From Alphaproteobacteria bacterium (lineage in GTDB: Bacteria; Pseudomonadota; Alphaproteobacteria; Micavibrionales; UBA2020), in NCBI GenBank assembly GCA_004297545.1, contig SCTB01000026.1, positions 10,207 through 74,206 of the forward strand: a stretch of 64,000 nucleotides of DNA, read 5' to 3'. Position numbers and translations under genes: made by a program. Shown one piece after another: positions 9,918 to 32,260 of this stretch (position 1 is its first letter; the number at the start of each line of letters is the position of its first letter). Under the pieces are notes generated by a model that ran no database searches, was not told the origin of the DNA, and saw nothing but the letters and a program-made list of their open reading frames with translations.

Positions 9918-12404
9918 TCACGGCCGGGGCTTCGGCCCCTGCGCCGACGGCGGCGTCACGGGCTTGACGCCGGTGGTGGCGGGACTGTCGGGATGCGCCG
10001 CATCCCAGTCCTTCAGTTCCTTCTTGTACATCTGCAGTTCCTGCATCGCGCCGGCGAGGTCCGCGCGTTCCATCTGCGCCATGGCGATTTTGTCGAGCGT
10101 GTCGCCGCCATGCGCCATCCACTTGGGCAGCACGTTGTCGAGGAAACTGGAATTCGTTGTCAGGATTTCATCCTGCTTTTTGATGCCGGCCTGCAGCACG
10201 CGCTCCAGCTCCGCAATGTTCTTCGGGTCGCGCAGGTCGATTTTCTTGAAATCGCCGATCTTGAACCGTCCGCGCGCATCGCGCTCCAGGGCGCCCGTGC
10301 CGTTCATATTCTCGTTCTTCATGTTTTCGGAATGGTTCCGCAGCGCTGTCGCGATATGCTGGTACCCCAGCACCGAAGGCTTGCCGTCGTCCGCCTTGTA
10401 TCCCTCGCGCTTCTGGGCCGCGCCGTTCTGCGCAATCTGGTCGTCGACATCATCCCAGGCGCGCTTGGCCTTCAGCGCGGCATCTCCGGTGATGGCGACG
10501 GCTGTCACCGCGGCCACAGTCAAAACGACAGGGGCGGCCGCGACCGTGATAGCGGCAGCCCCAGTGCCGGCGACGCCGGTGCCGAGCGCTCCCGTGACCA
10601 CCGTGGTGATGGCGGCGGCCTCGCCGGTCGAGGCGGCGGCGGTGCCCAGCAGAATGCCCGTCGTGGCCGTCGTAGCCGCGACGGCCCCCCGCTCGACCTT
10701 GTGCTGCGTCGTGTCTTCCTTGCTGATCTGGTAAGCAACGTCGACCGCCGTGACCGCGATGTTGACGACCGGCAGGAACTTACCGGCGCTGGTCAGGGCC
10801 GGGATGGTCTTTCCGGCGGCGGCGGCGATGCCTTCGGTCGCCTGCATGGCCGACGTTACGATGTTCGTTCCCGCGATGGCGCCGCCCACCGTGTCGCCGC
10901 GCTCGATGGCGCTCTTCAGGCCAATGCCGCCCATCACGAGGCCGATGGAGGCGGCCCCCGCGTTGCCGATGCCGCTGGCCCGCGCGGCGTCGATATTCAG
11001 CGCCGGGATGCCCTTTTTCGCGGCCAGCTGTTCGGTGATGCTGTTCAGCGTCTCGGGCGCCGCGATCCATTCCGGGTGCGCGCCGGATTCCGCGGCGATC
11101 CATTTAAAGCGCGGGTCCTCGAAATACCCCTTGGGCGACACGTCGCCGCGGTTGCGCTCGAGATAAAAATTGATGTCGGGCGCATTGAAGCCCGACGACA
11201 CGCCGAAGATGGCGTGGTTCACCTCGACGAGGTTCGCGCGGTCGAGTTTCACGTCCTTCAGCGCCGGATTGAGCTCCACAAGATGGTCCCAGGTCTGCCG
11301 GTAGAACTGGCCGACTTCGGAAGGGGCGGTGTTGAGCACGTCAAGCGTCAGCTTCGGCGACAGGGGCTGCGGCGGGATGAACCCCTTCTCCACCAGCGCC
11401 GGCGGCGGCACCGTTCGGTCGTTCAGGAACTGCCAGTGGAAATGGTCCTCGAATTGCGCGGCGTTCATGCCATCCGGCAGCGTATATTCGCCCGCGATGC
11501 CCTTCAGGCCGGTCTGGATCTCGAACTGCCGGGCGGGCTGATGGCTGACGATTGCCCTCTCCTCGGGCGACAACAGCGACATATTGACGCAGCCGTTCAG
11601 GTCGCAGGCGTAGACACTGTGGGGGCCGGGTTTCTGCTGCTGCAGGTATTCCTGCATCGTCTGCTCTGCATTCGCCGTGGTCGCGGGCGTCGTCCGGGTG
11701 CCGGGCGCGTAGTCCCCGTCATGCACCGGCAGCTGCTCGTTCAGGCCGCGCACGGAAACGCGCTCCGGCGGCGCCTTCATCATGTCGCCCCACCGCTGCA
11801 ATGTCGCGGGACCGTCGAACATGGAGGGGTCCATCACCATCTGCTGCACCGTGCCGTCCGGCATCTCGACGGGCAGCGTGGGCGCTACGTGATACCACCA
11901 TCTGGTCTTCGCCCCGTTCCGCGCCTGGATCAGCAGCGTCCCGTGATCGCCTTCAAACCCCCAGGCCTTCGAGGGCGTCTGCCCCATTTCGATGAGCCGC
12001 GTGGCCATAAGGTGCGCGCGCGCATAGCAGCCGTCCTTGGCGAAACCGAAAGCAATGTCCGGCATCGCGGCCAGCCGCTCAAAAATCTGCTGCGCCTGCG
12101 CGGGCGTCACCGGCTTTGGCGCCAGTTCAGGGAAAAAGGGCTGGGGTGGCGGCGGGGGCGGATTCTCCTCAGCGTAGTACCGCCCCGTTTGAGGTGGCGC
12201 GAAGCGGCTCACTTCATTTGTGCGCTGCGGCGCCAGGCCGCCGCTGGGGGGCTGGAGTATGGCTCCGTCGCTGAGCGGCTGCAGCCTGAATTCGGATGGC
12301 GGCAGGACGGGCAGATTCGGTTTGTTGGGCCCCACAACCGGCGTTTGCTCCGACGGGGGCGGAACAACTGGCTTCTTTCCACTATCCTGCGGCTGGTCGG
12401 GCAT
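9918..12404 (-). CDS. Multidomain putative effector/toxin: Pro-rich N-terminus, protein-glutaminase domain, unknown middle domain, Ala/Gly/Thr hydrophobic region
   Basis: DGCYARAHLM (C126), WWYHVAP (H172), VMDPSMF (D192) match protein-glutamine glutaminase motifs. Confidence 0.8.
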   Translation of the reverse strand: MPDQPQDSGKKPVVPPPSEQTPVVGPNKPNLPVLPPSEFRLQPLSDGAILQPPSGGLAPQRTNEVSRFAPPQTGRYYAEENPPPPPPQPFFPELAPKPVTPAQAQQIFERLAAMPDIAFGFAKDGCYARAHLMATRLIEMGQTPSKAWGFEGDHGTLLIQARNGAKTRWWYHVAPTLPVEMPDGTVQQMVMDPSMFDGPATLQRWGDMMKAPPERVSVRGLNEQLPVHDGDYAPGTRTTPATTANAEQTMQEYLQQQKPGPHSVYACDLNGCVNMSLLSPEERAIVSHQPARQFEIQTGLKGIAGEYTLPDGMNAAQFEDHFHWQFLNDRTVPPPALVEKGFIPPQPLSPKLTLDVLNTAPSEVGQFYRQTWDHLVELNPALKDVKLDRANLVEVNHAIFGVSSGFNAPDINFYLERNRGDVSPKGYFEDPRFKWIAAESGAHPEWIAAPETLNSITEQLAAKKGIPALNIDAARASGIGNAGAASIGLVMGGIGLKSAIERGDTVGGAIAGTNIVTSAMQATEGIAAAAGKTIPALTSAGKFLPVVNIAVTAVDVAYQISKEDTTQHKVERGAVAATTATTGILLGTAAASTGEAAAITTVVTGALGTGVAGTGAAAITVAAAPVVLTVAAVTAVAITGDAALKAKRAWDDVDDQIAQNGAAQKREGYKADDGKPSVLGYQHIATALRNHSENMKNENMNGTGALERDARGRFKIGDFKKIDLRDPKNIAELERVLQAGIKKQDEILTTNSSFLDNVLPKWMAHGGDTLDKIAMAQMERADLAGAMQELQMYKKELKDWDAAHPDSPATTGVKPVTPPSAQGPKPRP

Positions 12405-12500
12405 GCATGCTCCGCAACAGTTGTATTTCCATCAGGCGCAAGTCACGTCAGGCTTTGTCAATCATTGGTCCATCAGGCAAAAGCGTTCTGCGGCGATACG

Positions 12501-12698
12501 TCACCGGACGCTCAGGATTTTCAGCTCGCGGTCGAAGGTAAAGGAAATCTCTTTTCTGGCGTCGCGCGCCTCCCGGATTTTGGCGCAGAGGTCTTTTTCC
12601 GTTAGCGGCACCTGGAAGTAGCCGTCATGCGCGGGGAAAGACACCAGCAGTGCCCCCTCCTCCTCGAAAATCTTGCGGATGACGCCCTTCGATTCCAT
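12501..12698 (-). CDS. Small protein resembling the protein-glutaminase pro-domain (putative inhibitor)
   Basis: 65 aa; paralogue of 12704-12964 (VSF..HDGYFQ.P...EISF.F....KIL); AGGA RBS. Confidence 0.7.
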   Translation of the reverse strand: MESKGVIRKIFEEEGALLVSFPAHDGYFQVPLTEKDLCAKIREARDARKEISFTFDRELKILSVR

Positions 12699-12703
12699 TG
12701 TTC

Positions 12704-12964
12704 CTATCCGTTTCCGGGCTTTGCGCGCGCTGCCCCCGACGGCGACGGCGGCTCCACCGGCTTGTCCTGCACGAAGAGGATTTTCGCTTCCTTGTTGAAA
12801 GCGAAAGAAATTTCCCGGTTCAGGTCGCGGGATTGAACGACTTTCTCGCGCGCGGCGGCGTCGCCGGCGGGCAACTGGAAATACCCGTCGTGATTTCTGA
12901 AGGAAACAAATTCGACGCCGTCTTCCTCGACGATACGGCGCACGACGCCGCTGGATTCAATCAT
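12704..12964 (-). CDS. Small protein resembling the protein-glutaminase pro-domain (putative inhibitor), second copy
   Basis: 86 aa; paralogue of 12501-12698 with an added Pro/Lys tail. Confidence 0.7.
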   Translation of the reverse strand: MIESSGVVRRIVEEDGVEFVSFRNHDGYFQLPAGDAAAREKVVQSRDLNREISFAFNKEAKILFVQDKPVEPPSPSGAARAKPGNG

Positions 12965-13175
12965 TTGGGGCTTCCCCTGCGATGAAGCTCATGAAAACCA
13001 ATGATTTATTATACACTTTATGGGCAATAACGCGCCACCGGAAAACAGGCCCCGGCTGGAAAACTCCTTCTTAATCAGTACGTTATTTACGCTCGAAAAA
13101 TGCAGGACGCCGTGCCATGATACCCCCGATTCTAGGGTATACGGCAGCTTTTAAAAAAGTAGAGGAGAACAGAAC

Positions 13176-14186
13176 ATGTCCGTCAAAGTCGCCATCAATG
13201 GTTTCGGCCGCATCGGCCGCCTGGTCCTGCGTTCCATCATGGAAAGCGGCCGCAACGACGTCACCGTCGTCGGCATCAACGATCTCGCGACCTCGGAAGC
13301 GAACGCGCATCTCCTGAAATACGACAGCGTCCACGGGCGCTTCTCCGGCGAGGTGAAGGTGAGCGGCACGAAGCTGATCGTCAACGGCCACGAAATCACC
13401 ATGACGCAGGTGAAGGACCCGACGCAGCTGCCGTGGAAAGACCTCGGCGTCGACATCACGATGGAATGCACGGGCATCTTCACCAAAAAAGAAGATGCGA
13501 TGAAGCATGTCGCAGCCGGCGCGAAAAAAGTTCTTATCTCCTCCCCCGCGACCGACGAAGACATCACCGTCGTCTACGGCGTGAACCATGACAAGCTGGA
13601 AGCAAAACACGTCGTCGTCTCCAATGCGTCCTGCACGACAAACTGCCTTGCGCCTGTCGCCTATGTGCTGCACAAGGCCATCGGCATCAAGCACGGCTTC
13701 ATGACGACGATCCACAGCTATACCGGCGACCAGAACACGGTCGACACGATGCACAAGGACCTGCACCGCGCGCGCGCCGCCGGCATCAACCTCATCCCGA
13801 CCTCGACCGGCGCCGCCAAGGCCGTCGGCCTCGTGCTGCCGGACCTCAAGGGCAAGCTCGACGGCACCTCGATCCGCGTTCCGACCCCGAACGTGTCGGT
13901 GGTCGATTTCAAATTCACCGCGAACAAACCGACGTCGGTGGAAGAAGTGAACAAGGCGATTTCGGACGCCGCCGCAAGCGGCCCGCTGAAAGGCATCCTC
14001 GGCACCTATTCCGAGCCGCTGACGTCGACGGATTTCAACCACGACCCGCGCTCCTCGATCTTCGGGCTGAAGGAGACCAAGGTCATCGACGGCACCTTCG
14101 TGCGCGTGATGAGCTGGTACGACAACGAATGGGGCTTCTCGAACCGCATGTCGGACACCGCGGTCGCGATGGCGAAGCTGAAGTAA
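13176..14186 (+). CDS. gap: Type I glyceraldehyde-3-phosphate dehydrogenase
   Basis: INGFGRIGR, SNASCTTNCLAP, WYDNEWGFSNR. Confidence 0.98.
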   Translation: MSVKVAINGFGRIGRLVLRSIMESGRNDVTVVGINDLATSEANAHLLKYDSVHGRFSGEVKVSGTKLIVNGHEITMTQVKDPTQLPWKDLGVDITMECTGIFTKKEDAMKHVAAGAKKVLISSPATDEDITVVYGVNHDKLEAKHVVVSNASCTTNCLAPVAYVLHKAIGIKHGFMTTIHSYTGDQNTVDTMHKDLHRARAAGINLIPTSTGAAKAVGLVLPDLKGKLDGTSIRVPTPNVSVVDFKFTANKPTSVEEVNKAISDAAASGPLKGILGTYSEPLTSTDFNHDPRSSIFGLKETKVIDGTFVRVMSWYDNEWGFSNRMSDTAVAMAKLK

Positions 14187-21319: not shown

Positions 21320-22396
21320 TCAGACCGGGGCCGCCTGCACAAGACCGATATCATCCGCTCCCGTCGCCAGCATGACGAGTCTGTCGACGCCCAGGGCATT
21401 GCCGCTGCAGGCAGGCAGGCCGAATTCGAGGGCCTTTAAAAAATCTTCATCCACCGGGTAGTCGTCGCCGTAAACCTTTTTGCGCAGGCGCACATCGGCA
21501 AGAAAGCGTTCCCGCTGCACCGCCGCATCGGTCAGTTCGCCGAAAGCATTGGCAAGCTCGATGCCGCAAACGTAAACCTCGAAGCGCTCCGCGAAGCGTC
21601 CGTCTTCCGGCTTGGGGCGGGACAGCGCGGCCATCGAGACGGGATAGTCGTAAATGATAGAGGGCGCGGGAGAGCCGAGGCGCGGCTCGACCTTTTCCAT
21701 GAGAATTTTCAGCAGCGCGTTTTCCCAGTCGTCATGCGGCGAGACGTAGACGTCGATGCGTCTGGCTTCCGCGCGGATATGCGCGAGGTCGCAGAGATTG
21801 TTCGAAATATCCACGCCCGCGTATTTCTTCAGTGCGTCCACGACGGTGATTTTCTCCCACGGCTGATGCGGATCGCAAAACTTACCGTCATTCCCGCGAA
21901 AGCGGGAATCTCCCGCAACGAAAGCTGCCCCCCGCTCTTCGGCACGGGATCCCCGCTTTCGCGGGGATGACGACGCGGCGATATGCCGCACCAGATCTGC
22001 CGTTTCCTCCATCATATCCTTGTAGTCCATGCCGCGCTGGTACCATTCCAGCATCGTGAATTCCGGCGAGTGCCACGACGAGCCTTCCGCGTTGCGGAAA
22101 ACCTTCGCGAGCTGGTAGATTTTCGGCAGGCCGGCGACGAGAAGCTTTTTCATCGCGAATTCGGGGCTCGTATGCAGGTACATCGTGCGCTTCGACTGGC
22201 GGTCGGCGCTCAAAAGCTCCGTGCGGAAGCCCTGGATATGCGCCTCCATGCAGGGCGCCGTCTGCAGCGCCGGCGTATCGACCTCAAGATATCCGCGCGC
22301 GTCGAAAAAGGCGCGTATCTCGCCAAAGATGCGCGCGCGCTCCTGAAGGTAGGGAACTTTCCTCATGAAACGATCGGGATGCCACCAGGGATTCAT
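21320..22396 (-). CDS. epmA: EF-P lysine aminoacylase (EpmA/GenX), with in-frame repeat insertion
   Basis: YLHTSPEFAMKKLL, FRNAE..HSPEFTMLEWY, ERFEVY, ELANAFGEL, LGVDRL. Confidence 0.95.
   Translation of the reverse strand: MNPWWHPDRFMRKVPYLQERARIFGEIRAFFDARGYLEVDTPALQTAPCMEAHIQGFRTELLSADRQSKRTMYLHTSPEFAMKKLLVAGLPKIYQLAKVFRNAEGSSWHSPEFTMLEWYQRGMDYKDMMEETADLVRHIAASSSPRKRGSRAEERGAAFVAGDSRFRGNDGKFCDPHQPWEKITVVDALKKYAGVDISNNLCDLAHIRAEARRIDVYVSPHDDWENALLKILMEKVEPRLGSPAPSIIYDYPVSMAALSRPKPEDGRFAERFEVYVCGIELANAFGELTDAAVQRERFLADVRLRKKVYGDDYPVDEDFLKALEFGLPACSGNALGVDRLVMLATGADDIGLVQAAPV
21886..21972. repeat. 87-bp palindromic repeat inserted in frame in epmA
   Basis: cgtcattcccgcgaaagcgggaatc...gatccccgctttcgcggggatgacg; similar to intergenic 34007-34106. 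Confidence 0.85.
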
Positions 22397-23031
22397 GGGT
22401 GCTTCAGTTTTAGCGACTGCCCCTTCGCCCTGTCGTGCAGGCGGCGCTGTTTCATGACGGGCGTATTCAGCATTTTTTCCACGGCGGCGCTGGCCTTTTC
22501 CGCGGAAGAGGCGCGCGCGATGTCAAGCGCCGAAAGCCCGGCGTTGTCGGGAACGGCAGGGTCCGCGCCCTTGGCCGCCAGCATCTCGAACGGCGTCTTG
22601 TCGATATCCTCGCGGCCCTCCAGAAACAGGGGGAGGGAAAGATGCAGCGGCGTCTCGCCCGTGCGCGGGTCGGGGGTGTTCAGCGCCAAACCCTCCTGCA
22701 GCAGCATGACGGAGACCAGCATCGCATCGCGTTTTTCGAAACCGTAATGCAGCGGCGTGACGCCCGCATTGTCGGCCAGCCCCGCATCCGCGCCCGCATG
22801 CTGCAGCGCAAAGAACTGGGCCCAGAGGCTGCCTTCCTGCTTCCTGCCGTCCTCCGTCGAAACCTTGTCGAGGATCGTGAACAACAGATTGCGCCCGGTT
22901 GCGGGGTCGCGCACGTTCGGGTCGGCGCCTTTGTCCAGCGCCTCCTTGAGGCCGACGATGTCGCTTTTTTCCACGGCCTTGACGAGCGCGCGGTCGTGGA
23001 CGGGACTGCTGAATGTCTTTTTCGGCGTCAT
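22393..23031 (-). CDS. Ankyrin repeat protein
   Basis: LDKGADPN, GVTPLH, GETPLH, KGADP..DNAGLSALDIA; ATGA overlaps with both neighbours. Confidence 0.85.
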   Translation of the reverse strand: MTPKKTFSSPVHDRALVKAVEKSDIVGLKEALDKGADPNVRDPATGRNLLFTILDKVSTEDGRKQEGSLWAQFFALQHAGADAGLADNAGVTPLHYGFEKRDAMLVSVMLLQEGLALNTPDPRTGETPLHLSLPLFLEGREDIDKTPFEMLAAKGADPAVPDNAGLSALDIARASSAEKASAAVEKMLNTPVMKQRRLHDRAKGQSLKLKHP

Positions 23032-23681
23032 GACGGTTTCGGCGCAAGCTTCAGCCGGATAGGCTTTATCGCCATGGCTTCCGGAAGGCCCTCGCGCAGG
23101 GCCTCGCACATGTCGGCCGAAGCCTGCTTCATCTGCTGCTCGAAAATATAGGCCGGGTCGTGGGTGCGGATGTATTCTTTCATCGCCGCCACGATTTCGC
23201 CCGCGAAGGGCCATTGTATCGCGTATTCCCTGCCGCGCTGCATCACATCGAGGCCGCCCCCGCCCTTGCGCGTCACCTCAGCGCCTTTTTCCAGCAGCCA
23301 GATCACGCGGTCCGTCTTTTTCTCGTCCATATCCATGTTGAAGGCCCAGTGCAGCGGCGTCTGCTGCTGCCGCCCGGAAACCGTGTTGATATCCGCGCCG
23401 TTCTCCAGCAGCAGCGCCGCGATGCTGAAATGCTTGTTTTCCAGCGCCGCGATGAGCGGCGTCTCGCCCTCGTCGTCTTCCAGGTTCACGTCGGCGTTCT
23501 TTTCAATCAGCAGCTTCACGATGTCTTCGCGGCCCGCATAGGCCGCATGATAGAGGGCGGAGCGGTTCATGCTGTCGGCCGTATCGGGATCGACGCGGGC
23601 TGCAAGCTCGGCACGCACGGCTTCGATGTCGCCGTCGCGGGCGGCGTCGATGATCGGTTCTTCGCAGGGCACAATCGTCAT
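23028..23681 (-). CDS. Ankyrin repeat protein
   Basis: SALYHAA, GETPLIAA, LLENGADIN, QTPLHWA. Confidence 0.88.
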   Translation of the reverse strand: MTIVPCEEPIIDAARDGDIEAVRAELAARVDPDTADSMNRSALYHAAYAGREDIVKLLIEKNADVNLEDDEGETPLIAALENKHFSIAALLLENGADINTVSGRQQQTPLHWAFNMDMDEKKTDRVIWLLEKGAEVTRKGGGGLDVMQRGREYAIQWPFAGEIVAAMKEYIRTHDPAYIFEQQMKQASADMCEALREGLPEAMAIKPIRLKLAPKPS

Positions 23682-23793
23682 GAGAAACCTTGTCTTAAAG
23701 CTGCAATTGTATAGCAATTATATTCCATAATGTCAATGGGCGCCCCGACGCCCGGATATTGCCATAACGCCAATTACATAGTATGGTCCGCCC

Positions 23794-24528
23794 ATGAAAG
23801 GATCACACCCGATGCCCACCCGCGAGCTTCCCCGGCTTGTCGAAGAAGCGCTGCATGACATGGCGGCATGCGATGCCGGCGAAACGATGGCCGGTTTCGT
23901 GCGCGAACGGCTGCCGCTGCTGAAAAAGCAGGCGCGCTCCCGCAACGAGGCGATCGTCAACCGCGGCGAACTCGCGATCGTTATCACCGGCGACGCGGCG
24001 GGGCGCCTTGCGCTCGCCTCCGCCTATGCGCAGGCGCTCCACGGATTTGAGATCACCGCGGGCCGCGACGACGCGGAATCTACCGTGCTGAAAACCGTGC
24101 AATGGCGCAACATCATCGCGGACGAGCAGGGCAACCCGCTGCCTTTCCGCAAAGCCAGCGACAAACTCTATTCCGCGAAAAGCGACGCCGAAGGCGGCGT
24201 GCTGGTCATCGAAAACATCTACGACCTGCCGCCGAACGCCGCGAATGAAAACGCCGTCGCGCAGGCGCAGAACGGCGCGTTCCAGATGCTTGCCGACCTT
24301 CTCACGGAGTATGCGGAGCGCGATTACACGCCGGTCATCGTGCTGACGGGCGAGGCGGATAAAATGCAGCGGTTCCTGGCGGAGCGCCGCGGCGGCGCGG
24401 CCTATTTCACGAACCCCGTCCTCACCGCGACCGCCGCGGCTCCCCCGCCGGCGCCCGATGTTCCCGCCGCGACGATGTCGGACGTCACGGTCACCCGGCC
24501 GCTGAAGCTGAAGAAGCCGGGCCTTTAG
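23794..24528 (+). CDS. Degenerate CbbX/SpoVK-like AAA-fold protein (paralogue of 27781-28497)
   Basis: LAIVITG, YAQALHG, AEGGVLVIENIY, PVIVLTGEADKMQRFL; no Walker A GKT. Confidence 0.6.
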   Translation: MKGSHPMPTRELPRLVEEALHDMAACDAGETMAGFVRERLPLLKKQARSRNEAIVNRGELAIVITGDAAGRLALASAYAQALHGFEITAGRDDAESTVLKTVQWRNIIADEQGNPLPFRKASDKLYSAKSDAEGGVLVIENIYDLPPNAANENAVAQAQNGAFQMLADLLTEYAERDYTPVIVLTGEADKMQRFLAERRGGAAYFTNPVLTATAAAPPPAPDVPAATMSDVTVTRPLKLKKPGL

Positions 24529-24548
24529 ATGAAGAAGGGTTTAAAATA

Positions 24549-24977
24549 ATGGGCGCACAGCAGGATAGGGACGAGAGGGCGGAGCGTGTTCACGCGTTTG
24601 AATCCGCCGTGATGGGGAACGACGTCGCGACAGCAAGGAAATTGCTGGAGAGCGGGTTCATATACGAGAAGTACAGCTGGCCGCGGACCTCATACGAACA
24701 TATCCTGAAGGACGTCGTGTATCGCGGAAACGCGCAGATGTATTCGCTGCTGAAGCAGCATGGCATCGATTTTCGTTACCTGGAGAGCGATGCCAGATAC
24801 CAGTTGAAACTGGAGGTCGTCGATAGAGACGTCAAATTTTCCGCCCTGCAGGAAGAGCTGAGAGAAACAAAAGCGGAAGTGACCGCGCTGCGCGATCTCG
24901 TCACCGGCCTGTCGCAGAAACTGGAAGAACTGGACGGCCCGAAACTGGACAAGCCGCGCCCTTCGCTGAAACGCTGA
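24549..24977 (+). CDS. Hypothetical protein with degenerate ankyrin-like helices and coiled coil
   Basis: AVMGNDVATARKLLESG; heptad C-terminus; tail PKLDKPRPSLKR. Confidence 0.6.
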   Translation: MGAQQDRDERAERVHAFESAVMGNDVATARKLLESGFIYEKYSWPRTSYEHILKDVVYRGNAQMYSLLKQHGIDFRYLESDARYQLKLEVVDRDVKFSALQEELRETKAEVTALRDLVTGLSQKLEELDGPKLDKPRPSLKR

Positions 24978-25018
24978 AAAGCGCCGCAGACGCCGGATTC
25001 ATTTGAGAAAACCGTCGC

Positions 25019-25034
25019 TTAAACGAACATTAAC
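25019..25034 (+). promoter_or_regulatory. CtrA consensus box TTAA-N7-TTAAC
   Basis: ttaa acgaaca ttaac, followed by TATAAT ~12 bp downstream. Confidence 0.65.
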
Positions 25035-25094
25035 GCCTGCCGCGGTATAATGGGGCTTACAGCATGAGTTCCGACATAGAACGAGGATTCAGCT

Positions 25095-25802
25095 TTGTCA
25101 GGCACAGAAGAAAATATGCCGGCCATGGATGGCCCGGCCGCTCCATTTAGCGCTGAGCGCAAGCCCGGGTGGAAATCGCCTTGGTTTTTCATCTTCGCCG
25201 CAGCCGCCGCGGCCATTTTCATTTATGACGCGGCCCTCTACGACAAGATCCACTCGCCCCCGCCGCCGCCCCAGCCCGTCGTTTTCAGCAGCATGCGCCA
25301 CAGCGTCATTCAGGCCTCCAGCGGATTCCAGGCCCTGGTGGCCACGGTTTGCTGGATCTTGGGCGCCGGAATCCTGCTGAGCGGCAGCTTCAAGGTGTTC
25401 GGCGCATGGCGGCGCCGGAAGAGGGATCCCGCCCCTGTCCCGCGCGGCGAAAAAGCCCTGCTTTACCTGCTTCTTGGTGTCGGCCTGATGGCGTATCCCT
25501 TCGTGTATGAGAATTTCCGGCAGTCTTACGGTTATTACGAGGCCTATTACCACCCTTATTACGGCTACACGCAGGAGAAACCCAACACCGCAAACTTTAG
25601 AACTTTCGCTTTCTACAGCTTGTACTTCGGCACGATTGCGTTTCTCTTTGGCAGCTTCGCGCTGAAAAAGGCGCAGCGCCTGAAGGACGACCCGGCGGCG
25701 CCCGCGCTGAAGGACAAGGCCGCGTTCCGCTTTACGGCGGGATTCATTATGACCGCGCTGCCCTTCGCCTGCGCGTCGTTTATGGGGGTGGATCTGTGGT
25801 AA
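25095..25802 (+). CDS. Multi-TM protein, tandem paralogue 1 (IcmD/DotP-like units)
   Basis: ASSGFQALVATVCWILG; KAQRLKDDPAA; ends GVDLW; ATG at 25116 is an alternative start. Confidence 0.7.
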   Translation: MSGTEENMPAMDGPAAPFSAERKPGWKSPWFFIFAAAAAAIFIYDAALYDKIHSPPPPPQPVVFSSMRHSVIQASSGFQALVATVCWILGAGILLSGSFKVFGAWRRRKRDPAPVPRGEKALLYLLLGVGLMAYPFVYENFRQSYGYYEAYYHPYYGYTQEKPNTANFRTFAFYSLYFGTIAFLFGSFALKKAQRLKDDPAAPALKDKAAFRFTAGFIMTALPFACASFMGVDLW

Positions 25803-26488
25803 AGGAAACAGAGAAAATCATGGCCCCGGCCCCGCTCGCTGATAGTGCGCGCAAGCCCGGCTTGATATCTGTCCGGTCCGTGGTCTTCGTTATCGCCGCC
25901 GCCGCCGCCGCGGCGCATTTTATTTTAGATTCATATTGGAGCGAGCCGGCGCCGCCGCGAAAAGTAACCTTCCGTACCATAAACTCCGGCCAAATCGCTG
26001 CCGCCCACTCATTTCAGAACCTGACAGACACCATCTGCTGGATGTTCAGCGTCGGGTTTACGATCAGGGGCTGCGTCAGGCTGAATAAAGCCATGAAATA
26101 CCACTACGGCACACCGGAGTACGCCCGGCTCTGGAAACGCACCCGGCTATATTTCGTCCTGGGGATTTTCTTCATGACCTTCCCTTTCATTCGGGACGCG
26201 ATGCAGGGGCACATGATGTGCAACACGAACAGTCCTCACCCCTGCCCCGCCGACATAGCCCGGCAGCAGGATAGCCTGCAGCTGCTCGCCGTCGCCTTCT
26301 GGCACATCGGCGGGCTGGGCTTTTATTTCGGCAGCCTCGCTTTGGCCAAGGCGCAGCAGCTCAAAGACGACCCGGCAGCCGCCGCGCTGAAGAACGAGGC
26401 GGCGGGCTGCCTGCTGATCGGATTCATGACCCCCGCAGCCGCCATCGCCTGGGCGGGGTTTCAGGGGGTGGAATTGTGGTTCCCATGA
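25796..26488 (+). CDS. Multi-TM protein, tandem paralogue 2
   Basis: SFQNLTDTICW; KAQQLKDDPAAAALK; GVELW. Confidence 0.7.
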   Translation: MVKETEKIMAPAPLADSARKPGLISVRSVVFVIAAAAAAAHFILDSYWSEPAPPRKVTFRTINSGQIAAAHSFQNLTDTICWMFSVGFTIRGCVRLNKAMKYHYGTPEYARLWKRTRLYFVLGIFFMTFPFIRDAMQGHMMCNTNSPHPCPADIARQQDSLQLLAVAFWHIGGLGFYFGSLALAKAQQLKDDPAAAALKNEAAGCLLIGFMTPAAAIAWAGFQGVELWFP

Positions 26489-27093
26489 ACAAATTCAAGG
26501 TTTTTCTTCTGCCGTTTTTGTTGATATCGGCCTCTGCCGATGCAGGGACAACGTCGTTCCGGCGCATGAGCGAAAATGTCATCGTCGCCTCCAGCGGTTT
26601 TTCAAACCTTATTTCAACATTGTGCTGGCTGATCGGCATCGGATTTGCGATTTCCGGCTGCGTCAGGCTGTATAAGGCCTGGCGCCGCGGCAGGGACGCC
26701 CCGGACTTCCGCAGGCTGAAGGAAAAAGCGATGTTCAGGCTGTTCGTGGGCCTCGGCTTTTTCGCCTATCCCTTCGTGCAGCAGGCTTATACGCCTTCCT
26801 ACACTTACGGCGGCTACTACGGGAACCGCTATTATGGCAGCCCCTCTTACGGCTACGTCTATACGCCGCCGGGGCCGGAGGACCACATGAGGCTGCTCGC
26901 GGCAGTCTGCTGGTACTTCGCCATGATGGCGTTTTTATTCAGCAACCTCGCCCTCGCGAAAGCGCAGCAGCTCAAAGACGACCCGGCAGCCGCGGCGCTG
27001 AAGGACAAGGCCGCGTTCTGTCTGCTGACGGGATTCACCCTGACCGTCCTCCCTTTCGCCTGCGCATCGTTTCTGGGGGTGGAGTTGTGGTGA
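26485..27093 (+). CDS. Multi-TM protein, tandem paralogue 3
   Basis: Signal-like N-terminus; ASSGFSNLISTLCWLIG; KAQQLKDDPAAAALK; ATGA overlap. Confidence 0.7.
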   Translation: MNKFKVFLLPFLLISASADAGTTSFRRMSENVIVASSGFSNLISTLCWLIGIGFAISGCVRLYKAWRRGRDAPDFRRLKEKAMFRLFVGLGFFAYPFVQQAYTPSYTYGGYYGNRYYGSPSYGYVYTPPGPEDHMRLLAAVCWYFAMMAFLFSNLALAKAQQLKDDPAAAALKDKAAFCLLTGFTLTVLPFACASFLGVELW

Positions 27094-27719
27094 GGACAGC
27101 CGAAAAAATATTTATGCTGCTTCTCCTCGCCGTCTGCGCGATGTTCCTGGCCGTCGATATCAACAGCCAGCCCGTCGCGGCAGCTGAGGTTATCCGGAAC
27201 TACACCGGCTGCCAGAGCGGTTTGCCCGGCCTGATCAAAACGATGTGCTGGATTGTGGGCGGCGTCTTTTCGCTGGCCGGCGCGCGCAGCATCTACAGCA
27301 CCGTGATGCGCACATGGGATGAGCCCAGCCTGCCCGACCTGCCGAAGAGAACCTGGGTTTACTTCTTCCTGGCATTCGGCTTTACCATGCTGCCGACCAT
27401 GCTGGCGTTTTTTTCCATGCCGCATTGCCCCGTCCCGGTCGGAACTTACAACGGCATACCCTTAGGATTTCCCGGCGGCTGCATCAATGAGGTGACGCGG
27501 GCGGATTATTACCGGCTGCATCTCTCGTTCATCTTCGCTTACGGCGGCGCTCTGGGGTTTTATTTAAGCTATTTCGCGCTGTCCAAGGCGCTGCGCTTCC
27601 GCAACACCCCGGCAGAAGCTGCGCTGAACAGGGAAGCCGCCTTGCTGCTGCTGATGTCTTTCGTCATGGCATCCATTCCGTTTGTCTGGGCAATGGGGGT
27701 GGGGGTGGAGTTGCGGTAG
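27087..27719 (+). CDS. Multi-TM protein, tandem paralogue 4
   Basis: SGLPGLIKTMCWIVG; KALRFRNTPAEAAL; GVELR. Confidence 0.7.
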   Translation: MVRTAEKIFMLLLLAVCAMFLAVDINSQPVAAAEVIRNYTGCQSGLPGLIKTMCWIVGGVFSLAGARSIYSTVMRTWDEPSLPDLPKRTWVYFFLAFGFTMLPTMLAFFSMPHCPVPVGTYNGIPLGFPGGCINEVTRADYYRLHLSFIFAYGGALGFYLSYFALSKALRFRNTPAEAALNREAALLLLMSFVMASIPFVWAMGVGVELR

Positions 27720-27780
27720 ATATTATTTGACATAATAATATCAATCCTGTACTGTATTCCCCAGCAACCGGGGAACCCCC

Positions 27781-28497
27781 ATGATTATCGATGCCCAATT
27801 AATCGCCGAAGCGCTTCTGGATATCCGACCCTTTGACAAGGGCGGCGAAATGACTAAAAAAATCAATGATATGATGCAGATCGTCGAGGATGCAGAGGCC
27901 GCAGGTACCGGTCCTGTCGACCGCACCAGCCTTGCCATCGTTATCACCGGCGAGCCTCAGGCCTGCGAGGTCATGGCGCAGGCTTATACCAAGGCCCTGC
28001 ACGGCCATGGGCTGATCGCCGGGAAGTCCCTTTCCGACCCCCCGGCTCTGGAAAAAATCGACTGGCCTGGCGACTTCGAAGACTCCTTTATCAGCCGTCA
28101 GCTCCAGGAATATAACCACGCCTACAAGACGATAAACGAGGCAAAAGACCGCGCCGCGGGCGGCACGCTGGTCATCCCGGGCATCCATAAAATGCCCTAT
28201 GTCGGCTATGTCGACGAGGAAGATGCCGGCCCCAAGGCACTGAATGGCGCGCTCCGGGCCATTACCTCCTTTATGGCGGAGGGCGCCGGGAAAGAGCGCA
28301 CCCCCGTCGTCATCCTGACCGGCGAGGCGGAGCCGATGGCGGCATTTCTGGCGCAACAGCCTGAAATGCAAAAGCTTTTTGAGGGAAAAACCCTGGCCGT
28401 CTGCACGGAGGACCCCGCCTACTCCACGGAACTGAACGACCGCATCACCGTGCGCGGCCCCCTCAAGCTGAAATTGCGCTCCCCCTCATTTTCTTGA
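27781..28497 (+). CDS. Degenerate CbbX/SpoVK-like AAA-fold protein (paralogue of 23794-24528)
   Basis: LAIVITG, YTKALHG, AAGGTLVIPGIH, PVVILTGEAEPMAAFLAQQP. Confidence 0.6.
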   Translation: MIIDAQLIAEALLDIRPFDKGGEMTKKINDMMQIVEDAEAAGTGPVDRTSLAIVITGEPQACEVMAQAYTKALHGHGLIAGKSLSDPPALEKIDWPGDFEDSFISRQLQEYNHAYKTINEAKDRAAGGTLVIPGIHKMPYVGYVDEEDAGPKALNGALRAITSFMAEGAGKERTPVVILTGEAEPMAAFLAQQPEMQKLFEGKTLAVCTEDPAYSTELNDRITVRGPLKLKLRSPSFS

Positions 28498-28583
28498 CTT
28501 TATCCTCATAAACCGCCTATAAGACAGCAGTTTTGTTGAGGCAAGGCGTCATCCGCAATGGATAGCTTTTTGCGCTCCGCGTC

Positions 28584-28613
28584 CCCCAGTCGGCGAAGTT
28601 ACGCTCACTGGGG
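28584..28613 (+). ncRNA. Hairpin in ffh leader (possible alphaproteobacterial ffh RNA motif)
   Basis: ccccagt-cggcgaagttacgctc-actgggg, 30 nt upstream of the ffh start. Confidence 0.4.
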
Positions 28614-28643
28614 CGAAATTGTTTTGGTTATTGAGGATAAAAC

Positions 28644-30137
28644 ATGTTCGATAGCTTGACCAACAGACTGGGCGGCATTTTCGACGGCCTGATGAAGCGC
28701 GGCGTGCTGCGCGAGGACGACGTGAACGAGGCGCTGCGCATGGTGCGCGTCGCGCTGCTGGAAGCCGACGTCGCCCTGCCCGTCGCCAAGGAATTCGTCG
28801 AGCAGGTGCGCCTTGAGGCTGTCGGCGAAAAAGTCATCCGCTCTGTCAAGCCGGGGCAGCAGGTCATCAAGATCGTGCACGACCAGCTGGTCAAAACGCT
28901 GGGCCATGAAAATTCGCAACTGAACCTGAATGTCCCCGCCCCCGCCGTCATATTAATGGCCGGCTTGCAGGGCTCGGGTAAAACCACCACCGCCGGCAAG
29001 CTCGCGAAATTTTTGCAGGACAAGCAGAAGAAAAAAGTGCTGCTCGCCTCGCTCGACATCTACCGCCCGGCCGCGCAGGAGCAACTGGATATTCTGGCGA
29101 AGAAAGTCGAAGCGGGCAGCCTGCCTGTCGTCAAGGGCGACAAGCCGGATAAAATCACGAAGCGCGCCCTCGAAATGGGCCGCCTTGAAGGTTATGACGT
29201 TATCATCCTCGACAGCGCGGGACGTCTTTCCATCGACGATGCGCTGATGAACGAACTGGCGGAAGTGCGCGATATCGCGAAGCCCGTCGAAATCCTGCTG
29301 GTCGCCGACGCGCTGACCGGCCAGGACGCCGTGAACACGGCGCGCAACTTCAACGATCGTATTGGTATTACGGGTATCGTGCTGACGCGCGTGGATGGCG
29401 ACTCCCGCGGCGGCGCGGCGCTGTCTATGCGCGCGGTCACGGGCCGGCCCATAAAATTCCTCGGCATGGGCGAACAGCTCGACGCGCTGCAGGCTTTCGA
29501 TGCTGATCGCATCGCGGGCCGCATCCTCGGCATGGGCGATATTGTGTCGCTGGTCGAAAAGGCGGCGGAAACCATCCATATCGAAGACGCGCAAAAAGTC
29601 GCCGAGAAGATGTCGAAAGGCAAATTCGACCTCGAGGACTTTTTGACGCAGCTCAAGCAGATGAAGAAAATGGGCGGGCTTTCGGGGCTCATGGGCTTTA
29701 TGCCGGGCGCCGGCAAGCTCAAGGGCCTTATGGAGAACGCCAACGTCGACGACAAAGTGCTCGCGCACCAGGAAGCGATCATCCTGTCCATGACGAAGAA
29801 AGAGCGCGAAAAGCCCGATGTGCTCAACGCCTCGCGCCGCAAGCGCATCGCGGCGGGCTCCGGCACCACGGTGCAGGACGTCAACCGCCTGCTGAAACAG
29901 TTCATGGACATGCAGCAGATGATGAAGCGCATGCAGAAGCTGGGCGGCAAGGGCATGGCCCGCCACATGGGCGCGCTCTTCGGCGGCGGCGGCATGGGCG
30001 AGATGGAAGAAATGGCGAAGAACATGAAGGACAAGCTGGGCGACGGACCGCTGGGCCCCAACCCCTTCGACGCCGGCGGCTCGCTGGAATCGACGAACCC
30101 GCTGCTGCGGCAAAATGGAGGCAAAGATAAAAAATAG
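28644..30137 (+). CDS. ffh: Signal recognition particle protein
   Basis: GLQGSGKTTT, DSAGR, DGDSRGGAALS, Met-rich M domain. Confidence 0.98.
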   Translation: MFDSLTNRLGGIFDGLMKRGVLREDDVNEALRMVRVALLEADVALPVAKEFVEQVRLEAVGEKVIRSVKPGQQVIKIVHDQLVKTLGHENSQLNLNVPAPAVILMAGLQGSGKTTTAGKLAKFLQDKQKKKVLLASLDIYRPAAQEQLDILAKKVEAGSLPVVKGDKPDKITKRALEMGRLEGYDVIILDSAGRLSIDDALMNELAEVRDIAKPVEILLVADALTGQDAVNTARNFNDRIGITGIVLTRVDGDSRGGAALSMRAVTGRPIKFLGMGEQLDALQAFDADRIAGRILGMGDIVSLVEKAAETIHIEDAQKVAEKMSKGKFDLEDFLTQLKQMKKMGGLSGLMGFMPGAGKLKGLMENANVDDKVLAHQEAIILSMTKKEREKPDVLNASRRKRIAAGSGTTVQDVNRLLKQFMDMQQMMKRMQKLGGKGMARHMGALFGGGGMGEMEEMAKNMKDKLGDGPLGPNPFDAGGSLESTNPLLRQNGGKDKK

Positions 30138-30139
30138 GC

Positions 30140-30276
30140 CGTAACCCCGGCGCAAGCCGGGGCCTAAGATGGCGCGGCGTAAACGGTGGGTCTTTAATGA
30201 CATCCACTGCAGCGATGGAAAGATTTTAGACCCCGGCTGTCATGCATCGCATGCAAAGCATGGCGCCGGGGTTACG
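30140..30276. repeat. REP-like element, GTAACCCCGG family (paired arms)
   Basis: cgtaaccccggcgcaagccgggg...ccccggc...gccggggttacg. Confidence 0.7.
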
Positions 30277-30356
30277 AGATGAGGGAGCTGATATGGTTGC
30301 ATGGCTCCTGACCAGTTAACAGCAACCGGATAACTTTTGAAGAAAGAGAGAACCAA

Positions 30357-30734
30357 ATGTTGAAAGTACGCATGGCGCGCGCGGGCGCCCGCAAAAAGCC
30401 GTTCTACCACATCGTGGTGGCGGACAGCCGCAATCCCCGTGACGGCAGCTTCCTCGAGAAGCTGGGCACCTACGACCCCAAGCTGCCCAAAGACCACCAG
30501 GACCGCGTGAAGCTGAACGGCGAACGCCTCAAATACTGGATCAGCAAGGGCGCGCAGGTCTCCGACCGCGTCGCGATCTTCATGGGCAAGGCGGGCCTCG
30601 CCCCCATGCCGGCGCGCAAGAACAACCCGCAGAAAGCGGTCGCCAAGGCGAAAATGACCGAACGCAAAAAGGCGAAGACGGAAAAAGCGTCCAAGCCCGC
30701 TGAAGCAGCTCCGGCTGCCGACGCTTCGGCCTGA
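30357..30734 (+). CDS. rpsP: 30S ribosomal protein S16
   Basis: RMARAGARKKPFYHIVVADSRNPRDG. Confidence 0.97.
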   Translation: MLKVRMARAGARKKPFYHIVVADSRNPRDGSFLEKLGTYDPKLPKDHQDRVKLNGERLKYWISKGAQVSDRVAIFMGKAGLAPMPARKNNPQKAVAKAKMTERKKAKTEKASKPAEAAPAADASA

Positions 30735-30746
30735 TAGGTTATCCGG

Positions 30747-31277
30747 TTGCGCAAAGCGGCGGCATCGTCTGAAGAGGCTCTCACCTGCATGGCCGAGATC
30801 GTCGGCGTGCATGGCGTGAAGGGGGTTGTGAAGCTGAAGGTTTTCAGCGACAACCCCGAAGGCCTCACCGACTATGCCCCGCTTTGCGATTCTTCCGGGA
30901 AGCTTATTTTCAAGATCACCTCTCTCCACCAGCACGGCAACATCTGGCTCGCGGAGATCGACGGCATCAAGGACCGCACCGCCGCCGAAAAACTGCGCGG
31001 CACCCGGCTCTGCGTCAGCCGCGAAGAACTTCCGAAAATCAAGAACGACAATACCTATTATCACGCCGACCTCATCGGCATGACCGCGACATACCCGGAC
31101 GGCAAGCTCATGGGCAAAGTCATCATGGTCGCCAATTTCGGCGCGGGCGACCTGCTGGAAGTAAAGCCCGTCAAGGGCGCCAGCTTTTACGTCCCCTTCA
31201 CCGCGAAAATCGTCACCGACGTGAATGTGAAGAAAAAAGAAGTCATCATCGACCCACCGCCCGGTCTCATCGACTGA
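30747..31277 (+). CDS. rimM: Ribosome maturation factor RimM
   Basis: HGVKGVVKL, DRTAAEKLRG, YYHADLIG, NFGAGDLLE; start uncertain. Confidence 0.93.
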   Translation: MRKAAASSEEALTCMAEIVGVHGVKGVVKLKVFSDNPEGLTDYAPLCDSSGKLIFKITSLHQHGNIWLAEIDGIKDRTAAEKLRGTRLCVSREELPKIKNDNTYYHADLIGMTATYPDGKLMGKVIMVANFGAGDLLEVKPVKGASFYVPFTAKIVTDVNVKKKEVIIDPPPGLID

Positions 31278-31417
31278 TTTATCCGGATATTCCGGTTTCC
31301 TGATACAAATCTGCTACAATTTTTTTCCTGTTTGAAACCTGCGGGACAATAACCCGTTACCCTTCGGGGCTAGGCTTAAGAGGATGGGCTATCCATTCCA
31401 AAAGAAGGAGATCAGCC

Positions 31418-31669
31418 ATGAAAAACCGCATCCAGAACATTTCGAAGGGCGGCGCCATGCTTGTCCTCGCCCTTACCCTCGCGTCCTGCAGCGGCATGAA
31501 CACGACCCAGCAGCGCGTGCTGTCCGGCGGCGCGATCGGCGCCGGAGCGGGCGCCGTGGGCACGGCCATGACGGGCGGTTGCGTCAGCTGCGGAGCCGCG
31601 ATCGGCGGCGCCGTCGGCGCGGGCGCAGGCTATATCTACGACCAGGACGAAAAGAGACACGGAAACTGA
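31418..31669 (+). CDS. Glycine-zipper lipoprotein
   Basis: Lipobox LASC; GGAIGAGAGA repeats; AAGGAG RBS. Confidence 0.8.
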   Translation: MKNRIQNISKGGAMLVLALTLASCSGMNTTQQRVLSGGAIGAGAGAVGTAMTGGCVSCGAAIGGAVGAGAGYIYDQDEKRHGN

Positions 31670-31678
31670 CGGAGGCTT

Positions 31679-32260
31679 TCAGAGCTTCAGAAAGTCGAGC
31701 TTCGGCTTGAACCGCAAGGGAGGCAGGATCGTGACACGCTCTGCGGAGCCTTCGATAAAGGCTTCGCGGAGCGTGTCCAGCGCGGCGTCCTGACGCTTTT
31801 TATCTTCCGCCGCCCGGACAGCCTCTTCTTCCCAAGTGGTTTCGCGCGTGGTCTGCTGCCCCATCGCGGGCAGGACAAGAACCGCGTAGCGGGAAGTTTT
31901 GGGACCTCCCGGCTGTCCCGCAAGATGAATGCGCTTCCAGACGACCTTCAGGCCGTCATCGTCCATGACAAGGCTTTCCGGCTCGATCTTGACGTGATCC
32001 GGGGGCGTGTTCTGGGCCAGCATGATGGCCCAGGCGCCCTTGGGCAGCGGGCCCGGCGGCTCTTCGCCCAGCGCGTCCCGCCAGAATTCTTCCCACTGTC
32101 CGGGATCTTGCGTGTTGCTGAGGCTGCGGGCTTCGCCGGGCTTGCGGGTGTATTCGCCGGTGAAGAAATTAAAGCCGTTGATGTCCATCGAGGTTTCGCC
32201 GCTGAAGGCTTTTTTCAGCGGCGATCTTTTATCTTCGATATTTATTTTATGAACCTTCAC
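31679..32260 (-). CDS. Hypothetical protein, possible PrcB C-terminal-like domain
   Basis: WEEFW...AIMLAQ...TSRYAVLVLP pattern; C-terminal VTILPPLRFKPK motif. Confidence 0.55.
   Translation of the reverse strand: MKVHKINIEDKRSPLKKAFSGETSMDINGFNFFTGEYTRKPGEARSLSNTQDPGQWEEFWRDALGEEPPGPLPKGAWAIMLAQNTPPDHVKIEPESLVMDDDGLKVVWKRIHLAGQPGGPKTSRYAVLVLPAMGQQTTRETTWEEEAVRAAEDKKRQDAALDTLREAFIEGSAERVTILPPLRFKPKLDFLKL

Follow-up and report, generated by a model that had tools for sequence, protein, structure and literature searches.

A shared C-terminal peptide tag on unrelated proteins of a Micavibrio relative, and its possible role as a sorting label

Introduction

What would lead an ankyrin-repeat protein, two AAA+-like proteins and a protein without a family to end in almost the same peptide? 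The question is posed by a 64,000-nucleotide stretch of DNA (the window: contig SCTB01000026.1 of assembly GCA_004297545.1, positions 10,207 to 74,206) from an alphaproteobacterium of the Micavibrionales, in which four proteins share a near-identical C-terminal peptide and are strong matches to a 15-residue profile derived from the whole genome. A sequence-only reading of the window had reported this motif on unrelated proteins, had taken it for a lineage-specific export or chaperone-binding tag and had likened it to the C-terminal signals of type IV secretion system (T4SS) substrates. New here are the genome-wide statistics of the motif, its lineage dialects and the finding that the classical injection systems can be excluded; we propose, with a probability of roughly one half, that the tag is a sorting or delivery label.

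Ffh places the organism beside metagenome-assembled genomes labelled Micavibrio sp., at 85% identity, and the genomes of the order are small (1.3-2.9 Mb). According to the available portion of a 2025 review, the molecular basis of the predator-prey junction is unknown (PMC12428579). The M. aeruginosavorus genome was described as encoding type I and type II secretion only, with no type III or type IV system, and ankyrin proteins go unmentioned in the accessible part of that paper (PMC3189940). Among titles and abstract openings, a literature search for Micavibrio and ankyrin returned nothing on Micavibrio ankyrin proteins, and the strings PLKLK, PLRLK, PLRFK and PLKFK had no relevant context in the literature searched, which did not extend to supplements.

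Results

A terminal peptide across the genome

The source genome of the window (G000; assembly of 3.86 Mb in 197 contigs, 99.3% complete, 7.9% contamination) was represented by 3,486 proteins, or 1,096,424 residues, from a simple codon-bias caller, so that start codons, and whatever is said here of N-termini, hold approximately. Among these proteins there are 40 matches to the core P[LI][KR][LF]K, and it lies in the last 30 residues every time, where 3.8 occurrences would be expected (p ~1.5e-41 under uniform placement); the motif is far more frequent at C-termini than chance, the point on which the sequence-only reading had said it could fall. The full regular expression of that reading matches 19 times, all in the last 30 residues (1.8 expected), and a test free of gene calling, over 18,969 six-frame open reading frames (ORFs) of at least 60 residues, places 43 of 44 core matches there. 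The 15-residue profile built from these sites holds about 29 bits of information and at a threshold of at least 10 bits picks out 111 genes with a C-terminal match, as against 11 internal positions, in a scan where internal positions outnumber C-terminal ones 13-fold. Likewise, LRLK, PLRL, KPLR, MKPL and LKLK are among the most enriched words in an unbiased 4-mer scan of the last 25 residues of all proteins. Together with the finding, by translation, of all six quoted peptides at the C-termini of their ORFs, this terminal excess confirms a shared C-terminal motif on unrelated proteins.

The consensus of the tag is G-[TL]-x-x-x-[VI]-x-[VI]-[M/x]-[KR]-P-[LI]-[KR]-[LF]-K, followed by 0-18 residues (median 5), mostly basic or proline-rich, before the stop codon. 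Across the 40 core sites the codons of the five core residues vary freely at synonymous positions; the conserved object is therefore the peptide and not a DNA element, which rules out a DNA repeat or a terminator artefact. On this evidence, and that of the related genomes described below, we regard the motif as a recognition tag that is real, under selection and shared across the family. Among the carriers scanned, it is matched by no model of Pfam or NCBIfam.

Basic, Pro/Lys-rich ends (PKP, KPP, APK, KPK and the like) are a broader feature of this proteome: they are found in the last 15 residues of 467 of 3,302 non-carriers and at an internal control position in 76 of 3,302. For the single word PKP, the last 25 residues hold 177 occurrences genome-wide, with 26 expected.

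Proteins that carry the tag

The tag is carried by at least 111 proteins, or about 3% of the proteome. Stripped of their tails, the 111 are grouped by BLAST into 42 families (one with 54 members, one each with 7, 4 and 3, five pairs and 33 singletons), and a hydrophobic N-terminal stretch is seen in just 3 of them, compared with 667 of 2,942 other proteins; the earlier description of the carriers as unrelated and lacking signal peptides thus holds well beyond the window. Pfam, run on 110 of the 111, recognises Ank in 53, BRCT, Macro and an AAA_2 fragment in one each, gives weak matches for 2 and none for 52, and NCBIfam adds leucine-rich repeat (LRR) regions in three of 51 non-ankyrin carriers. 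None of the NCBIfam C-terminal sorting-domain (-CTERM) models matches these 51 at E values up to 0.1. The recognised domains Ank, LRR, BRCT and Macro are binding modules only.

Carriers are short (median 190 residues; 107 of 111 have 350 or fewer), have the G+C content of the genome and are spread across 55 contigs, and 47 of the carriers have another carrier within 1 kb. Their bodies are acidic, with a net charge of -2.3 per 100 residues versus -0.1 in other proteins, and their last 15 residues are basic (+3.4 versus +1.15). The family of the AAA+-like carrier at 23794 is predicted to adopt an AAA+ fold, for which CbbX (3syk; E 1.6e-5) is the best match. Neither AAA+-like copy of the window has a complete Walker A motif (G..G.GK[ST]), that at 27781 retaining a bare GK[ST], and the name pseudo-AAA given to them earlier is apt. 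In AlphaFold models of the 23794 protein and of an ankyrin carrier, the tag lies within a terminal stretch of 20-30 residues that has a predicted local confidence (pLDDT) of about 50 and no secondary structure. Docking of the tail in the protein's own ankyrin groove is not seen: the last ~20 residues of the modelled ankyrin carrier (23028) lie free of the ankyrin domain, in a model built from an alignment of only 2 sequences.

Three further features of the carriers and of the ankyrin proteins may be recorded here. An N-terminal "FN" motif, roughly [KSD]-[AS]-F-N-x-[AS]-[AS], occurs in the first 30 residues of 32 of 111 carriers versus 203 of 3,155 other proteins, and at positions 30-60 in 4 of 111 versus 157 of 3,155; it is present in 16 of the 42 carrier families. 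Examples in the window are 9260-9835 (-) and 31679-32260 (-). Start codons are uncertain, and the motif may be a second, N-terminal part of the label. Some ankyrin proteins (Table 1) end in another module, A[LF]xE[FL]xxxGGxA[DE], then 10-20 residues, then a KKxL[KR]P-like sequence, and their genes often form tandem arrays. Finally, two ankyrin carriers, 12261-12788 and 12855-13391, lie inside the flagellar export cluster G000:C169:1241-15356, between flhF/flhG and fliI.

Conservation and dialects

Is the tag maintained, and how widely? The 17 metagenomic homologues of the 23794 protein, 50-81% identical to it, all keep ...[VI]T[VI]xRPLKLK[KR]PG. P236, L237 and L239 are invariant among these homologues while the proline-rich linker ahead of the tag varies; the tag is kept by purifying selection.

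Genome by genome, matches to a degenerate DNA version of the motif were counted, with the reversed pattern as control. The source genome gives 33 matches versus 2, the sister genomes G003, G013 and G014 give 49 versus 3, 26 versus 1 and 48 versus 1, respectively, and the other 11 genomes of the genus give 0-1. Two genomes of another genus in the family, G027 and G031, give 9 versus 1 and 7 versus 1, and 15 of these 16 matches are located 0-10 residues before the stop codon of ORFs of 125-270 residues. None of 250 further alphaproteobacterial genomes exceeds 6 matches, in keeping with the proposal of a lineage-specific peptide tag.

The pattern describes one of several dialects. Of 41 genomes of the family that were searched, 24 have orthologues of one carrier family (C52:8245-8766), and the tails of these orthologues, at the same position, are lineage-specific (Table 1). 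Similarly, 400 kb sampled from genome G001 in regions picked for ankyrin matches (374 called genes) contain the dialect-B word AP.[TV]A[RKSHI][FW] 17 times, 17 of 17 in the last 25 residues, and the A core 0 times. Genomes of the genus that are negative for pattern A are, as these comparisons indicate, not tag-free; they appear to use other dialects at the same site. Several carriers of G027 and G031 are syntenic orthologues of carriers of the source genome at 30-40% identity, with flanking genes at 60-86%. Such orthologues and the dialects argue that the tag is old in the family, that its clients evolve fast and that whole lineages have switched dialect together. Because the dialects are lineage-wide and occupy the same site of orthologues, the simplest reading would be a single bacterium-encoded reader that co-evolves with its clients. 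Ankyrin proteins are abundant throughout the family: at first look, candidates for Ank_2 number 140-503 per genome in most genera of the family and 0-11 per genome in five of the order's seven other families.

Could the tail instead act after delivery, or outside sorting altogether, as a basic amphipathic binder of polyanions or membranes (DNA, lipopolysaccharide, phospholipid) or as a linear motif for a prey or host protein? It alternates hydrophobic and basic residues and then runs into a Pro/Lys-rich end, and the counts given above make such ends a proteome-wide habit. However, charge-driven binding needs neither an invariant Pro nor fixed spacing, the strict terminal position would be left unexplained, and lineage-wide dialect switches are hard to reconcile with a conserved external target. 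We consider this role very unlikely.

The search for a reader

The comparison with T4SS substrates has an evident basis, since a basic C-terminal tail on ankyrin-type proteins resembles substrates of the VirB/D4 and Dot/Icm systems. VirB4 (PF03135), however, was found in 0 of 15 genomes of the genus, among them assemblies of 1-7 contigs at 99% completeness, and VirD4/TraG (PF02534) has no match in the 99.3%-complete source genome. The analogy is thereby refuted, short of a T4SS carried on an unbinned plasmid in every assembly. Family models likewise give no match in the source genome for TssC of the type VI secretion system (T6SS), for a contractile sheath or for encapsulin (PF04454). FHIPEP is present in exactly one copy, the flagellar FlhA, in each of the 15 genus genomes, and there is therefore no injectisome. 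With their genes not found by family models, T4SS, T6SS, injectisome, contractile sheath and encapsulin were all set aside as readers.

The only classical one-step system found is type I secretion (T1SS), in two complete LssB-type ABC/HlyD/TolC clusters (C34:511-5345 and C174:16288-21421). The tail would then be a C-terminal type I secretion signal, as for Orientia and Ehrlichia ankyrin proteins; carriers are acidic and lack signal peptides, and ankyrin proteins are T1SS substrates in Rickettsiales according to the accessible portions of two papers (PMC4315096, PMC3417381). The RTX proteins of the source genome, however, end in a conserved acidic/hydrophobic domain (...DFVxLT...VDxDGxG...GVTGL.DE..L..GNLIV) in 15 of 15 cases, unlike the tag, which is rich in Lys and Pro. 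Nor do the clusters track the tag: four genomes that lack pattern A have cluster 1, and the tagged G027 and G031 do not, a distribution that rules this cluster out as a specific partner; cluster 2 is universal and adjoins its giant RTX substrate, as it does in M. aeruginosavorus (PMC3189940). We give a type I signal little credence. The gene beside cluster 1, of 755 residues, encodes a CHASE2 cyclase found in 15 of 15 genomes.

A different kind of reader would be an intracellular hub, such as the N-domain of an AAA+ unfoldase or protease. The carriers would then form an adaptor library in which a variable ankyrin, LRR, BRCT or Macro head binds a target and the tail is a docking peptide that plugs into the hub. 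Several features suit this alternative. The domains recognised in carriers are all binding modules, with no enzyme among them; the tag is a short, disordered peptide at the terminus, and three ankyrin proteins have it near the N-terminus; lineage-wide dialects would fit one co-evolving hub. In addition, the organism's own SspB ends in ...GEVISLDSFRKKDKDKTEK, a peptide of hydrophobic residues plus F-R-K-K that likewise stands some residues before the end and has a composition like that of the tag, yet the two give no convincing alignment. A second LonA-type protease (Lon2; 719 residues, G000:C194:30391-32550) has a unique N-terminal region of ~110-190 residues in place of the usual substrate-binding domain. 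This region occurs only in G000, G003 and G014, that is, in 3 of 61 genomes, and is absent from the tag-rich G013, so Lon2, the sole accessory protease tested, was rejected as reader and no hub was found. Moreover, more than 100 adaptors for one bacterial protease would have no known precedent, and the fast evolution of the carriers and their lack of conservation outside the family are more like an interface with other organisms. We judge the adaptor library unlikely.

An upstream box

Do the carriers share regulation, and does it lead to the machinery that reads the tag? A box, TTGACATAA, occurs 168 times in the genome and stands in sense orientation within 200 nt upstream of 145 genes, namely 30 of 111 carriers and 115 of 3,375 other genes; its typical position is 50-90 nt ahead of the start, and its extended form is TATTTGACATAATA. 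Carriers thus appear to be partially co-regulated. The housekeeping genes fpg, pfkB and NAPRTase carry the box too; what the box marks is therefore a class of promoters and not a regulon of its own. Non-carrier box genes of at least 205 residues number 66, and the 40 of them scanned are a mixture of ankyrin proteins, orphans, housekeeping genes, SecA2, FliI, Lon2 and two M48 peptidases with no clear transport operon among them, and the box was abandoned as a route to the machinery.

A second SecA

One lead remains from the export side. The source genome has two SecA genes, the housekeeping SecA1 (C158:3316-6084) and a SecA2 (C177:2517-5351, locus L249) located downstream of tldD/pmbA, together with one SecY and no SecY2. 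SecA1 ends in the usual CPCGSGKKYKxCHG zinc finger; SecA2 is without this zinc finger, which binds SecB and the ribosome, and has a Pro/Ala-rich tail. SecA2 is 44-48% identical to SecA1 and 55-58% identical to acidobacterial SecA (Bryobacterales), and orthologues of its zinc-finger-less kind are rare, at about 10 clusters in 5.8 billion proteins. These comparisons suggest that SecA2 was gained by horizontal transfer from an Acidobacteriota-like source, and it is reminiscent of SecA2-only accessory systems. Five of 61 genomes have two full SecA copies, the four pattern-rich ones (G000, G003, G013 and G014) and G019; double matches in three other genomes are fragments of one gene. The SecA2 gene also carries the box TTGACATAA.

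On these grounds the accessory SecA might recognise the tag or tail and thread signal-less proteins through the single SecYEG. The link is nonetheless weak, because G019 has SecA2 and no pattern excess, because tagged proteins occur in genomes with a single SecA (G027, G031 and all those of dialects B, C and D), and because the four tag-rich genomes with SecA2 appear to form one clade, so that their co-occurrence probably reflects one evolutionary event. A Sec route would, moreover, stop at the periplasm. We hold SecA2-dependent export to be quite improbable as an account of the tag.

Tagged genes in the window

The coordinates listed by the sequence-only reading are gene ends rather than motif positions; Table 1 gives both. 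Small genes lie between epmA (21320-22396, -) and ffh (28644-30137, +), and again directly ahead of trmD, and ankyrin repeats are the sole family that Pfam recognises among them. Four of the six examples quoted earlier are strong (16.3-28.2 bits); the two that had been called looser score below 3 bits. One of the two, the ankyrin protein at 22393-23034, has a syntenic orthologue in G013 that terminates in EKPLRLKP, and for this reason we read its KGQSLKLKHP tail as a decayed copy of the tag. The other, the KPRPSLKR end of the orphan at 24549-24977, is a doubtful member, indistinguishable from chance, and the orphan has no orthologue in the syntenic G013 island. The G013 orthologue of the 23028 ankyrin protein terminates in SVKPLRLVQPPKKL. 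For the 31679 protein, the label PrcB-like finds weak leads only (feature score 0.88, TM 0.47-0.57).

Between the two AAA+-like carriers stand four tandem paralogous membrane proteins of 205-235 residues (25095-27719, +), which all share ...LAKAQQLKDDPAAAALK... and have a weak DUF308 match as their only family match. They are without the tail, and a role as tag machinery is unsupported, the syntenic G013 island having just one copy.

Table 1. Tagged proteins and related features; coordinates without a contig or locus name are positions in the window
Feature	Coordinates	Strand	Remarks
Ankyrin protein, decayed tail AKGQSLKLKHP	22393-23034	-	weak Pfam Ank matches; profile <3 bits
Ankyrin-repeat carrier, 229 aa	23028-23717	-	Pfam Ank_2 at 8e-30; protein end by translation ...EAMAIKPIRLKLAPKPS
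Tag of 23028 protein	23049-23093	-	EGLPEAMAIKPIRLK (...AMAIKPIRLK), then LAPKPS; 16.3 bits
AAA+-like carrier, 244 aa	23794-24528	+	CbbX-like fold, no Walker A; no Pfam match; 17 homologues all tailed; protein end by translation ...DVTVTRPLKLKKPGL
Tag of 23794 protein	24469-24513	+	ATMSDVTVTRPLKLK, then KPGL and stop; 28.2 bits; tail pLDDT ~50, disordered
Orphan, 142 aa, doubtful member	24549-24977	+	ends DKPRPSLKR; profile <3 bits; no Pfam match
AAA+-like paralogue, 238 aa	27781-28497	+	31% identity to 23794 protein (ORF and comparison); protein end by translation ...RITVRGPLKLKLRSPSFS
Tag of 27781 protein	28429-28473	+	ELNDRITVRGPLKLK (...RITVRGPLKLK), then LRSPSFS; 27.1 bits
Carrier without family, 193 aa	31679-32260	-	weak PrcB_C-like leads only; protein end by translation ...RVTILPPLRFKPKLDFLKL
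Tag of 31679 protein	31706-31750	-	GSAERVTILPPLRFK (...RVTILPPLRFK), then PKLDFLKL; 26.1 bits
Dialect A tails	C52:8245-8766 orthologues		ISVKKPVRLKLKP, ISVKKPVRLK, ITVGKPLKLK
Dialect B tails	C52:8245-8766 orthologues		...RPVVVPKDPARFKLKP; NMKLSRPVVVPKDPARFKLKP; AP.TARFK type in G001
Dialect C tails	C52:8245-8766 orthologues		NIKPLKPPRFRPP; KPLKPPRFRP
Dialect D tails	C52:8245-8766 orthologues		ITLLSLPALRRRP; DITLLSLPALRRRP
Ankyrin protein with N-terminal motif	L111:5382-6722	-	contigs C119, C52 (this and the next two rows)
Ankyrin protein with N-terminal motif	L111:4042-5559	-	
Ankyrin protein with N-terminal motif	L112:4908-5861	+	
Second-module ankyrin gene	G000 C43:1984-2805		many more such genes in G001, G006, G016
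Second-module ankyrin gene	G000 C67:8932-10881		
Second-module ankyrin gene	G000 C69:13263-14273		
Second-module ankyrin gene	G000 C196:31415-32407		

Discussion

What, then, is the tag for? We propose that it is the core of a short, disordered C-terminal recognition element on cytosolic binding-module proteins, which would form a large and fast-evolving set of ankyrin, LRR, BRCT, Macro and AAA+-like proteins and many orphans in a relative of the epibiotic predator Micavibrio. The element is old in the family and has drifted into lineage-specific dialects on orthologues, as would be expected of a single bacterium-encoded reader co-evolving with all of its clients. Its most likely function, we infer, is that of an address label that hands the carriers to one export or delivery route; export is suggested by their effector-like make-up and lack of signal peptides. 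Such a route would not be a T4SS, a type III injectisome, a T6SS or a contractile injection system, and probably not an RTX-type T1SS. Because the classical systems are absent and RTX-type type I secretion is improbable, it may be a pathway not recognised before, or a general pathway put to unusual use, with the SecA2 of the tag-rich genomes as the one concrete candidate. In its most far-reaching form, which we put forward tentatively and as distinctly less probable than the label itself, the proposal is of an undescribed sorting system of the Micavibrio family, in which a dialect-bearing label sends at least 100 ankyrin, LRR and orphan proteins per genome toward prey or host with no known injection machine, served by SecA2 in the most expanded lineages.

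Several observations weigh against a sorting or delivery label. The candidates searched yielded neither a reader nor a transport machine, and the SecA2 lead is loosened by G019, by the tagged single-SecA genomes G027 and G031 and by the single clade to which the four SecA2-bearing, tag-rich genomes probably amount; the box that some carriers share is also found upstream of housekeeping genes. Neither Pfam nor NCBIfam recognises an enzymatic domain in the carriers, and such a make-up would be no less expected of adaptors that dock on an intracellular hub than of injected effectors. Among 97 ankyrin proteins collected with a crude regular expression, the tag is strong in 31 and weak in 10, 5 have the second tail type and 51 have other ends, so that about half of the ankyrin proteins bear a recognisable tag. 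Finally, three ankyrin proteins have a tag-like motif near the N-terminus (for example, MTEHVPNPADPDKNPVALQRDIRVLKPLTL...; Table 1), a placement that would be strange in a C-terminal secretion signal read in one direction and is commoner in docking peptides.

Whichever of these functions applies, a label that picks out about 3% of a proteome as one client set provides a ready catalogue of candidate effectors or adaptors. The tag peptide could serve as bait for finding the reader, and the dialects are a natural co-variation experiment for a computational search.

How does the tag compare with known systems? It works in the manner of known C-terminal client labels, yet for every family open to testing it lacks the defining features. 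Substrates of VirB/D4 T4SSs, of the Agrobacterium VirE2/VirF type, have Arg-rich C-terminal tails. The likeness lies in an unstructured, positively charged C-terminal peptide on unrelated signal-less proteins, ankyrin proteins included; here, however, there are no T4SS genes, and the tag is a defined motif of 10-15 residues with an invariant Pro, not a charge pattern. T1SS signals, as presented in the accessible portions of the papers on them (PMC4315096, PMC3417381), share with the tag an uncleaved C-terminal position, acidic signal-less substrates and ankyrin clients, and T1SS genes are present here. They differ in that the organism's own RTX substrates use another signal and the presence of the transporter does not follow the tag.

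SecA2-only accessory systems export some signal-less proteins in mycobacteria and Listeria, and such systems are also known in Clostridioides. The parallels, as far as the available text of one account goes, are an additional SecA that lacks the zinc finger, the presence of just one SecY and some signal-less clients (PMC6333443). The differences are the Gram-negative setting, the Acidobacteriota-like origin and the occurrence of tags without SecA2.

LPXTG, PEP-CTERM and GlyGly-CTERM sorting tags and the cargo-loading peptides of encapsulins are familiar short C-terminal labels, and like the tag they place a short conserved C-terminal motif on many unrelated proteins of one genome. In contrast to tags of the sortase and exosortase type, however, the motif described here is followed by no transmembrane helix, only by 0-18 polar residues, and the source genome has no encapsulin gene for a cargo peptide to address.

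The C-terminal XB peptide of SspB docks on the N-domain of ClpX. As proposed above for a hub, a short terminal hydrophobic and basic peptide there tethers diverse cargo binders to one machine; here, however, the organism's own SspB tail differs in sequence from the tag, the carriers exceed 100 in number and the search for a hub found none. Likewise, the F-box/PRANC ankyrin proteins of poxviruses, Orientia and Wolbachia dock on SKP1, and they too are a large, fast-evolving ankyrin library with one common C-terminal element. That element is a folded helical domain that binds host SKP1, whereas the element described here is a disordered peptide of 10-15 residues that is also found on non-ankyrin proteins; in the ankyrin model the tag region has low pLDDT and no secondary structure, and the ankyrin carriers have no Pfam domain beyond Ank, with no folded helical C-terminal domain. 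If the reader proves to be an export route, the tag would be a new secretion signal and would probably belong to a new pathway; if it proves to be a hub enzyme, the carriers would make up a large adaptor library of the F-box type, the first in bacteria.

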